Below are positions 24,507 through 26,003 of a stretch of DNA of 51,741 nucleotides, in pieces. The notes below the pieces were generated by a model. It was not told where the DNA came from and did not search any database. It was given only the letters and a program-made list of their open reading frames with translations. This DNA is from an uncultured Candidatus Bathyarchaeia archaeon (GTDB lineage: Archaea; Thermoproteota; Bathyarchaeia; Bathyarchaeales; SOJC01), in assembly GCA_964395545.1 (NCBI GenBank), contig CAYNAW010000003.1:1-51741 (forward strand), in the 5' to 3' direction. Within the stretch, counting starts at the first letter, position 1. Every line of letters starts with the position of its first letter. A program made the translations under genes and the position numbers.

Positions 24507-25508
24507 TTATTTGATGTTTGCGATTTCTTCCAGAAACTGAGCTACGTTTCTTCCAGTCGCCGTCAATTCATAGTGTAGCGGCATCTCTCGTCTGAACACC
24601 AGTTTCTTTCCCCTCAGGTTTCTCAGGTACTTGTAGACTCGGCGGAGGTTAACATTCGTAGCCTTCGACAAGGGGCGGGCAGAAATGCCGGCTTGCGGAA
24701 TCGCTTCATGTAGTCTTTTCTGTGTCGATGTCAGTCTTTCGAGATCTGGCGATCTTTTGGTTCGGAAGTAGAAGATGCGGTCAGAATCCGAGTTGTTGAC
24801 GATGAGGTTGCGCATTTGGAGACGTTTCACAGTCCTCGACATGCTCTTCGTGGGGGCGACTTTGAGCAGTTCTTCGCGCGTTTTCGGGCTGTTTATGAGG
24901 GTTCTCAGGATCTTTTCTTCATGACCGCTCGAGTGGATTGGCAGCTGGCCTGCAAAACCATGTTTAGCCACTGCATCGTTTATCCTTCTGCCGTACAATG
25001 TAAGTTTGAGGCGTTTTCCGTCGTCTTCTACTAGCCTGGCTTGGATGAGCGGTTCCAAATAGTCGGTGATGGTCTTCTGACTGTGGAGGTATCCTCGTCG
25101 GCCGAGAGTGTTCTGCAAGTCTTCAAGCGAATGTGGGGATTCGCTCAGAGTGGTGAGTATGGCTAGTCTTCTCTCATTCTTGAGGGTGTTGAGCAATGTA
25201 AGCCCGTGGTTGCTATCTGAAAGGACTTTGTTGGCTTCGCGGAGTTCCCTCTTGACTTTCCACGTGTCGCATTGTTCCACACATAGCATGGGTGAGATAA
25301 CGTTGCATGTTTTGCATCGTTCCTCCATCACTTGGAGTGTCTGCTCCAGCGTGCATCCCTCGTCTATCATCTTCCGTGAGAGCCACAGGGAGTTTCCGCT
25401 GAGCTTTCGGCTGTCTGCCCGCTTTTGTGGAGAATCGTATGTCATAGGGGCTTTGTCATAGGGGAACCTGCTCTTTCGGGGGGAGAAAGGAGAAGAGGGT
25501 TTCTTCAA
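24507..25508 (-). CDS. multi-wHTH (ArsR-like) transcriptional regulator with N-terminal Cys4 motif
   Basis: CKTC-x7-C-x3-C cluster followed by three winged-helix-like repeats (RLAILTTLSESPHSLEDL.., ILRTLINSPKTREEL.., RLHEAIPQAGISARPLSKA..). TTG start with GGAGG 7 nt upstream; an alternative ATG lies at 25445. Confidence 0.65.
   Translation of the reverse strand: MKKPSSPFSPRKSRFPYDKAPMTYDSPQKRADSRKLSGNSLWLSRKMIDEGCTLEQTLQVMEERCKTCNVISPMLCVEQCDTWKVKRELREANKVLSDSNHGLTLLNTLKNERRLAILTTLSESPHSLEDLQNTLGRRGYLHSQKTITDYLEPLIQARLVEDDGKRLKLTLYGRRINDAVAKHGFAGQLPIHSSGHEEKILRTLINSPKTREELLKVAPTKSMSRTVKRLQMRNLIVNNSDSDRIFYFRTKRSPDLERLTSTQKRLHEAIPQAGISARPLSKATNVNLRRVYKYLRNLRGKKLVFRREMPLHYELTATGRNVAQFLEEIANIK
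25436..25464. promoter_or_regulatory. extra GTCATA half-sites (GTCATAGGGG x2) inside the 5' end of ORF 24507-25508
   Basis: GTCATAGGGG at 25441-25450 and 25455-25464. The reverse complement of 25436-25447 is CTATGACATACG, identical to 25530-25541. Confidence 0.5.
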
Positions 25509-25527
25509 ATCTGTTCCTCCATCGCTT

Positions 25528-25566
25528 CACTATGACATACGTCATAATACTATGACGTGCGTCATG
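25528..25566. promoter_or_regulatory. two phased palindromic operator-like sites in the divergent intergenic region
   Basis: TATGAC-ATAC-GTCATA (25531-25546) and TATGAC-GTGC-GTCAT (25551-25565), 20 bp apart. They abut TTATATA (25567-25573) and TAGTATTA on the other strand. Confidence 0.65.
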
Positions 25567-25610
25567 CTTATATACCTTTCCCACACACCACTATACGGAG
25601 CAACAGCCCA

Positions 25611-26003
25611 TTGAAACTCCCCTGCGAAATAGCAGTAAAGTCCGTTGTCCCCGCTATACGCGCCCTCATCGCCAAAGAACTCGTCGAAACCCATAGAATG
25701 AGACAGCGCGAAGCCGCCCAACTACTCGGCATAACCCAGACAGCAATAAGCAAGTATGAACACCGCGTCAGGGGAAGGATAATCTCAATAGACAACGATC
25801 AGGAGGTTATGACGTTCATCGCCGAGACCGCAACTTCGCTCGCACACGGTGGTTTGGACAGGGCAGCCCTGGTTTCGCATATTTGCACTACGTGCAGACT
25901 CGTGCGTGAGAAACGCCTCATGTGCGAGCTATGCAAACGCACGAGCCCAACCCTCGATACTGAGCAGTGCAGACTGTGCTCTTTTGCATGCAGAGAATTC
26001 TAG
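25611..26003 (+). CDS. HTH transcriptional regulator (COG2522-like) with C-terminal Cys-rich metal-binding tail
   Basis: LPCEIAVKSVVPAIRALIAKELVETHRMRQREAAQLLGITQTAISKYEH, then CTTC..CELC..CRLCSFAC. The track start GTG 25557 lies upstream of the TATA-like box, so TTG 25611 is favoured. The start remains uncertain. Confidence 0.65.
   Translation: MKLPCEIAVKSVVPAIRALIAKELVETHRMRQREAAQLLGITQTAISKYEHRVRGRIISIDNDQEVMTFIAETATSLAHGGLDRAALVSHICTTCRLVREKRLMCELCKRTSPTLDTEQCRLCSFACREF

Follow-up and report, generated by a model that had tools for sequence, protein, structure and literature searches.

Which protein acts on the control region shared by two divergent genes of an uncultured Bathyarchaeia archaeon, and with what effect on each gene, is the question raised by a pair of palindromes that lie between the gene for a 333-aa winged-helix protein and the gene for a 130-aa helix-turn-helix (HTH) and cysteine-rich regulator. 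Bathyarchaeia are abundant uncultured sediment archaea whose gene regulation is almost unknown. The window, which is the whole stretch of DNA that was analysed, comprises 51,741 nucleotides of the source genome, and coordinates refer to it unless a contig is named; genomes, contigs, and loci are designated by G, C, and L numbers, respectively. A preliminary description had proposed that six TATGAC/GTCATA half-sites organise this region, that both flanking proteins bind them, and that the arrangement represents a redox- or metal-sensing autoregulatory switch.

Two Palindromes in the Shared Intergenic Region

The two palindromes, designated O1 (TATGACGTGCGTCATg, 25551–25566) and O2 (TATGACATACGTCATA, 25531–25546), have their centres 20 bp apart, with O1 being the nearer to the TATA box and ending 1 bp before the TATA octamer. 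Re-reading of the sequence confirmed the palindromes previously reported as TATGACATACGTCATA (25531–25546) and TATGACGTGCGTCATG (25551–25566) and their 20-bp register, together with copies of GTCATAGGGG at 25441–25450 and 25455–25464 and a 12-mer, CTATGACATACG, at 25530–25541 that recurs as its reverse complement at 25436–25447. When up to one mismatch is permitted, TATGAC-N4-GTCATA is matched twice in the window against an expectation of 0.06, and two or more matches were obtained in none of 100 shuffles. Whether the motif might be a common dispersed repeat was also looked at, and ATGAC-N4-GTCAT was found only at O1 and O2 in the whole genome (1.47 Mb, 95% complete). A chance origin can be discounted for the palindromes; the bare hexamer TATGAC is only mildly enriched in the window (26 copies vs. 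14.8 expected). Five exact copies of TATGAC fall within 25441–25556, and the sixth half-site (GTCATG, 25561–25566) matches at five of its six positions; rather than six working half-sites, the region contains four real half-sites, making up two operators, and one remnant operator, with the copy at 25455 being attributable to coding and chance.

In an alignment of 15 intergenic regions from the family, the arms of O1 and O2 (TATGACA..CGTCAT) and the sequence TTATATA form invariant blocks, the sole exception among the arms being L012, in which one O1 arm reads TTAC (14 of 15 invariant). Variation is found in the two bases at the centre of each palindrome and in most of the flanks, giving the consensus TATGACr-NN-yGTCATA. 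Across 30 loci from several families, the centre of O1 lies 51±2 nt and that of O2 71±2 nt upstream of the regulator start codon, and the spacing between the two is 18–21 bp in all loci that carry the pair. Four loci that possess the regulator and have no divergent gene (L022, L023, L028, and L031) lack O2 and carry a single palindrome, which directly abuts CTTATATA. In L079 and L083, the outer half-sites are altered jointly, to ATGGCA...CGCCAT, and the inner half-sites are unchanged, a pattern that fits a symmetric four-subunit complex or dimer-of-dimers and does not fit RNA hairpins.

The latter would be an alternative function for such sequences, as a terminator or leader structure, since each palindrome could in principle fold; a related possibility is that the palindromes are products of chance or of a repeat element. 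The hairpin loops would, however, consist of two bases only, the arms never show compensatory change (L079 and L083 change one arm without its partner), and the predicted fold of the leader is no better than that of shuffled sequence (z = 0.25), while uniqueness in the genome speaks against a chance or repeat origin. We regard these explanations as extremely improbable. The proposal that two divergent regulator genes share this control region is supported, in the form of two cooperatively spaced, putative palindromic operators with probable autoregulation.

The Divergent Genes and Their Products

The gene on the minus strand (24507–25508), which is the proposed target of the operators, encodes the 333-aa protein. 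In the structural model, residues 1–37 form a disordered N-terminal tail (pLDDT below 50) that is followed by a helical module with an invariant C-x2-C-x7-C-x3-C motif and by three winged-helix domains. Pfam assigns HVO_A0261_N (45.5 vs. a threshold of 35) and HTH_45 (30.5 vs. 25.5), both above threshold, and the fold matches are weak and ArsR/SmtB-like, the first winged helix being of this type. The choice of start codon, previously left between 25508 and 25445, was settled by comparison in favour of TTG 25508: in all 15 family loci the reading frame stays open and in phase ahead of ATG 25445, with indels occurring in multiples of three, a Shine-Dalgarno sequence (GGAGG, 25516–25520, minus strand, conserved in the family as ATGGAGGAAA) is situated 7 nt before the TTG, and homology extends from residue 1 of the long form. 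A five-codon upstream open reading frame (encoding MTKPL) that overlaps ATG 25445 was rejected on the same grounds of an open, in-phase TTG 25508 frame in all 15 relatives, and a hairpin sequestering the Shine-Dalgarno sequence in the leader of this gene was likewise rejected, its fold being no better than shuffled.

The regulator gene (25611–26003, plus strand) encodes the 130-aa protein that is the proposed binder of O1, O2, and a third site, O3, discussed below. Its start was resolved as TTG 25611, at which position all relatives have ATG or TTG; a GGAG Shine-Dalgarno sequence (25597–25600, plus strand, conserved as ACGGAGC) lies upstream, and the N-terminal sequence MKLPCE is conserved. 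The alternative start GTG 25557 was rejected, as this codon falls inside O1 and relatives start at the position of 25611. In the regulator, HTH_3 (PF01381) is matched over residues 41–70 only and passes marginally (23.5 bits vs. a cut-off of 23), and the protein is no more distant from the ArsR-like protein PagR, which is the best sequence-profile match of its N-terminal half (2zkz; E = 0.0021, residues 15–61). The AlphaFold model (pLDDT 85.7) is all-helical and has no strands, so that a beta hairpin following the recognition helix, as would be expected of an ArsR/SmtB winged helix, is absent from the predicted structure. Among folds in the PDB, XRE proteins and restriction-modification controller (C) proteins are the best matches, although weak ones (E > 0.5, TM 0.3–0.45), and sequence, profile, and fold searches of the PDB yielded no significant solved relative of either the 130-aa or the 333-aa protein.

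The cysteine patterns ascribed to both proteins are as described. In 39 homologues of the regulator, the conserved positions are P4, C5, C92, C95, C105, C120 (at least 90%), and C123, with position 108 occupied by Cys in the branch to which the source regulator belongs and by His in the remaining ones. The conserved cysteines (C5, C92, C95, C105, C/H108, C120, and C123) probably hold zinc or an Fe-S cluster. Redox or metal sensing by the regulator is plausible, an assignment that we infer solely from these cysteines and from the kinds of genes targeted in relatives. Of 251 sampled genomes of the phylum, 226 (about 90%) contain the family, and a literature search covering COG2522, HVO_A0261, the operator motifs, and Bathyarchaeia regulators returned no study of the regulator family or its motif. 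In one family of the phylum, regulator homologues occur in open frames of 320–340 aa (e.g., G187:C24, G215:C2, and G135:C1), where they are perhaps fused to another domain.

Promoter Geometry

The palindromes had been described as lying between two TATA boxes, one for each gene, but only one conserved TATA box is present (TTATATAC, 25568–25575), and it is located to the right of both palindromes; the supposed left-hand box corresponds to the Shine-Dalgarno sequence and TTG start of the minus-strand gene. The conserved box forms invariant columns in the family alignment, possibly serves both directions, and is positioned at −43 from the regulator start, which fits the genome-wide peak of TATA-like hexamers at 50 to 41 nt upstream of starts led by a Shine-Dalgarno sequence in the source genome. 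From this geometry, the regulator transcript is predicted to start at approximately 25594–25598, right at the Shine-Dalgarno sequence, and O1 would occupy the BRE position of the regulator promoter.

Two assignments can be considered for the TATA box of the minus-strand gene. The favoured one is the shared box at 25568–25575 read in the opposite direction, at −67 from the start codon and with a BRE-like sequence, GGGAAAGG, on its far side. The sequence concerned (25576–25583, CTTTCCCA; minus-strand reading TGGGAAAG), which forms the element CCTTTCCC together with C25575, is purine-rich and appears BRE-like, and is oriented toward the minus-strand gene; its conservation is confined to loci with the divergent gene, and it is absent from the four loci that lack that gene. 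This assignment is favoured because at other targets in relatives the palindrome comes immediately after a TATA box located 60–66 nt before the start codon, and because the module (TATA, O1, spacer, degenerate O2, and GGAGG) recurs in G012, where it drives a nitroreductase gene. The other possible assignment is the AT-rich spacer between O1 and O2 (25547–25550), which reads CATAATACTATG when taken with the A/T ends of the palindromes and lies at −42 from TTG 25508; in each of the 15 family loci this spacer is AT-rich, the sequence itself not being conserved. Under either assignment, both operators would overlap core promoter elements of the minus-strand gene, whose transcript is predicted to begin at approximately 25545 or 25522.

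Which of the Two Proteins Binds

Both divergent proteins had been thought to bind the palindromes; comparison across relatives points instead to the small HTH/Cys protein alone, and the 130-aa regulator very probably binds O1 and O2 and regulates itself. Three lines of evidence lead to this assignment. Firstly, genomes without the divergent gene keep the regulator and a palindrome: a search at E ≤ 1e-10 found no homologue of the 333-aa protein in G039 (97% complete and a single contig) or in G047, and in both the regulator and one TATA-flush palindrome are retained (L022 and L023). Secondly, three paralogue branches with different recognition helices each have a palindrome of their own, situated alike at about −57 (and −77) from the regulator start. 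When 51 distinct loci were tabulated, helix type and operator type were found to co-vary, such that the helix (T/S)Q(T/S)A(V/I)SKY is paired with TGACrNNyGTCA, SQ(P/S)AISLY with TTACAATTGTAA (three of three), and (T)PAA(I/V)TQY or TQATISHY with TAACrNyGTTA (nine of ten). Other classes of the phylum follow the pairing rule as well. Thirdly, the joint alteration of the outer half-sites in L079 and L083, described above, is what a symmetric dimer-of-dimers would produce.

Binding by the 333-aa protein, which would then autoregulate and also control the small gene, has its own arguments, in that the first winged helix resembles that of ArsR/SmtB proteins, which bind inverted repeats, the presence of the 333-aa gene correlates with that of two operators, and in genus g7 that gene retains both palindromes without an adjacent small regulator. 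Set against these are the retention of the palindrome at the small-regulator promoter in G039 and G047, which lack the gene (in G039, the palindrome is found at three other promoters as well), the tracking of palindrome type with the recognition helix of the small regulator across the three branches, and the composition of the protein itself, as symmetric binding to a palindrome is not what three different winged helices in one chain would suggest. Binding by the 333-aa protein is consequently considered unlikely, and the g7 arrangement indicates that adjacency alone does not identify the binder.

The order Sua5, winged-helix gene, divergent regulator, and Yip1 is conserved across the family, the neighbours of the locus being Sua5/TsaC, Yip1, and HMG-CoA synthase, and other families of the order likewise possess the divergent pair. 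The two genes are separated in genus g7, where palindromes are retained both at the winged-helix locus and at that of the regulator. In three genomes of this genus (L082, 2527–3654, and also L080 and L081), the winged-helix gene keeps the double palindrome and TATA box, a phage portal protein gene (Portal_Mu, PHROG 9232) replaces the regulator across the promoter, and the regulator is found elsewhere with palindromes of its own, which suggests a rearrangement or a viral insertion at the winged-helix promoter.

A bistable switch resembling that of phage lambda, in which both divergent regulators share the operators with different preferences in the manner of CI and Cro at OR, would fit a layout in which the regulator genes diverge, two operators lie in tandem about 20 bp apart, and a third site is found at a distance, and the small protein weakly matches Cro and HTH_3 profiles. 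The locus is, however, not a prophage, being syntenic between the Sua5 and Yip1 housekeeping genes across the whole family, PHROGs give just a weak generic HTH match, and the evidence against the 333-aa protein as a binder applies here too; such a switch is thus very unlikely.

A Third Site and a Polypurine Box Within the 5′ Coding Region

The minus-strand gene contains, within codons 20–25, a sequence (O3, 25431–25447, minus strand) in which TATGACATACG is retained and the other arm is degenerate, with its centre 100 bp from O2. In the source genome, 7 of 10 arm positions of O3 match, and at 95–108 bp from O2 a full palindrome is present in loci of other families (L026, L030, L075, and L076), this position belonging to the non-coding leader in L026. 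Across the 15 family loci, the Pro, Thr, and Tyr codons of the O3 region are at least 90% conserved at their wobble bases, which is beyond coding need. We read 25431–25447 as a decayed third operator, to which the GTCATAGGGG copy at 25441 would belong. The second copy (25455–25464) is unsupported as a binding site; its GTCAT is kept in about half of the 15 loci, in Asn/Asp-Asp codons, and its GGGG part is not conserved. With the start at TTG 25508, both copies are located in coding sequence at the 5′ end of the minus-strand open reading frame (F-P-Y-D-K-A-P-M-T-Y-D), as reported, but only one is conserved at the DNA level. As for the looping that had been envisaged, a third site at such a distance makes it conceivable.

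A second element in the same coding region is a polypurine box (GGGAGAAAGGAGAAGAGG, 25481–25498), opposite which the minus strand encodes Ser-Ser-Pro-Phe-Ser-Pro and which is conserved even at wobble positions. The 16-mer GGAGAAAGGAGAAGAG (25482–25497) has exactly two copies in the genome; the copy in the window is antisense within the 5′ coding region of the winged-helix gene, and the other, on contig C16 at approximately 21436 (minus strand), is found 5 nt upstream of the start codon (ATG) of a TFB gene. In the sister genome G001, the TFB gene is likewise preceded by this polypurine box (L109). Residues 1–37 of the winged-helix protein, which are predicted to be disordered, span the strongest nucleotide-level conservation, namely that of the polypurine box and O3.

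The polypurine motif was also observed in unannotated hairpin elements of the form GGTTGGG...GAGGGAGAAAGGAGA...CCCAACC, in which it forms the loop above a 14-bp stem with four covarying pairs in several genomes. The copy in the source genome (G000, contig C9, 28193–28261, minus strand) sits between a tRNA gene and a 306-aa gene, and others occur in L108, L112, L113, and L114. An Rfam search of these elements gave no matching family. The elements may represent a small RNA complementary to codons 4–9 of the winged-helix mRNA.

Further Sites in Relatives

A genome-wide regulon, which a search for the motif might have defined, was not found in the source genome, as no further TATGAC-type site is present; one-mismatch matches on contigs C20 and C100 were rejected, since the inner r/y positions fail and the number of such matches equals the control rate. 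Five single-contig relatives have 2–4 further sites each, vs. 0–2 for the control pattern. Among these, an operon encoding DUF116 and a fatty-acid hydroxylase carries a site in all four single-contig genomes of the family (L095, L099, L101, and L102), with the palindrome right after TTTAAAT. The DUF116 homologue of the source genome (contig C64) has no site, which we take to indicate that the site has been lost. Other targets in relatives include genes for a small membrane protein and a nitroreductase. G039 carries three additional identical sites, at two genes for molybdopterin-oxidoreductase-domain proteins and at a TFB paralogue (L092, G039:C1 at approximately 1957951), where the palindrome is flush with the TATA box in the same layout as at the regulator's own gene. 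In G012 (C1 at approximately 165683, L096), a second control module, consisting of TATATAAAT, O1, an AT spacer, a degenerate O2, and ATGGAGGAAAA, drives the nitroreductase gene. These target genes, with a nitroreductase, Mo-oxidoreductases, and a di-iron hydroxylase among their products, hint at an oxidative or redox response, which would fit a cysteine-based sensor. At other genes of relatives the same palindrome is found immediately after the TATA box, and a site in this location is the classic position of archaeal repressors such as MDR1, LrpA, and Phr.

Proposed Mechanism

Building on the observed sequence, uniqueness, conservation, and position of the palindromes and on their co-variation with the regulator paralogues, the best explanation, and one that we consider probable, is that O1 and O2 are operators of the 130-aa protein encoded downstream and mediate local autoregulation; the binder, the sign of regulation, looping, and the signal are its conjectural parts. 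Two dimers of the protein would probably occupy O1 and O2 on the same face of the DNA, 20 bp apart. O1 would cover the TFB contact site upstream of the regulator's TATA box, so that binding should lower the regulator's own transcription. From the side of the divergent gene, O1 and O2 would fall between the TATA box and the ribosome-binding site, and the same binding should therefore block recruitment of RNA polymerase for the 333-aa gene. The degenerate O3, 100 bp away in the divergent 5′ coding region, may add a roadblock or a DNA loop, and a zinc or Fe-S cofactor would make DNA binding responsive to a redox or metal signal.

The sign of autoregulation is uncertain. Besides O1 there is no BRE-like sequence at the regulator's own promoter, and for this reason the bound regulator could instead recruit TFB and activate. 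A regulator of dual mode would activate where its site is upstream of the TATA box, as at its own gene and the TFB gene of G039, and repress where the site is downstream, as at the divergent gene and other targets. Both arrangements of the site do occur, promoters with the upstream site have no purine-rich BRE, so that TFB may need help, and in the Thermococcales the position of the site decides the sign of regulation by SurR and TrmBL1. The site nevertheless ends 1–2 bp from the TATA box and takes up the BRE position itself, an arrangement that speaks for competition with TFB, and dual-mode regulation is seen here as a minority possibility beside the autoregulation by O1 and O2 outlined above.

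A more ambitious joint reading, which we hold to be possible but doubtful, would combine a compact Bathyarchaeia switch with a readable phylum-wide code and a second layer of control. Here, the regulator would belong to a phylum-wide, unstudied family of archaeal sensors in which three recognition-helix types are paired with three palindromes; a single TATA box would fire either way, two operators would silence both directions, and a third operator 100 bp off would close a loop. The wobble-conserved polypurine box would then represent a second control at the RNA or protein level, linked to the TFB gene and to the unannotated hairpin elements.

Comparison With Known Systems

The autoregulation proposed here resembles that of the C proteins (e.g., C.Esp1396I), in which two dimers of a small HTH protein occupy two adjacent palindromes at their own promoter, the dimers being a proposal in the present case. 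The C proteins are the top fold matches of the 130-aa model, albeit weak ones with E-values above 0.5, and O1 and O2, 20 bp apart and TATA-flush, correspond to their two adjacent own-promoter boxes. Unlike the C-protein systems, the locus has no restriction-modification genes, its promoter is of the archaeal TATA/TFB type, and the regulator has an extra C-terminal cysteine-rich domain. With lambda CI/Cro at OR, and looping to OL, the locus shares the divergence of the regulator genes, operators in tandem that would be bound cooperatively, and an additional operator at a distance; it differs in its chromosomal housekeeping context and in that comparison favours one binder only. With regard to ArsR/SmtB proteins, among which metal- and thiol-sensing repressors are common, PagR (2zkz) is the best profile match of the regulator's N-terminal half, whereas the regulator is all-helical and without a beta wing in the predicted model and its cysteines are in a separate C-terminal domain.

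Archaeal regulators offer further parallels. SurR and TrmB/TrmBL1 of the Thermococcales use palindromic sites whose position relative to the BRE and TATA box decides the outcome, SurR possesses a CxxC redox switch, and the TrmBL1 motif, TATCAC-N5-GTGATA, superficially resembles TATGAC-N4-GTCATA; they differ in being winged-helix proteins of other families with other motifs and large regulons. MsvR of methanogens has redox-sensitive cysteines and is transcribed in the opposite direction to its target; the boxes that it binds lie in the intergenic region between the two genes and overlap core promoter elements, and the protein is characterised by a V4R domain and a TTCG-N7-9-CGAA motif (PMC3729527). 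The present locus is MsvR-like in having an archaeal cysteine-bearing regulator, a divergent layout, and sites that overlap the core promoter. Against the NCBIfam MsvR profile, the 333-aa protein scored 14 bits vs. a cut-off of 220 and the 130-aa protein gave no match.

Significance

Local autoregulation is an ordinary mechanism, and on comparative sequence grounds the regulator appears to represent a family of transcription factors that is new and uncharacterised and whose operator code can be read. The correspondence between helix type and palindrome provides a natural three-way specificity series, which here accompanies a very compact divergent promoter. The pairing of protein and operator is concrete and can be tested with purified protein and synthetic DNA, with no need for culturing, in a family present in about 90% of the sampled genomes of the phylum. 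Should the cysteines prove to sense oxygen or metals, this family would be a candidate for a general sensor of stress in the phylum.
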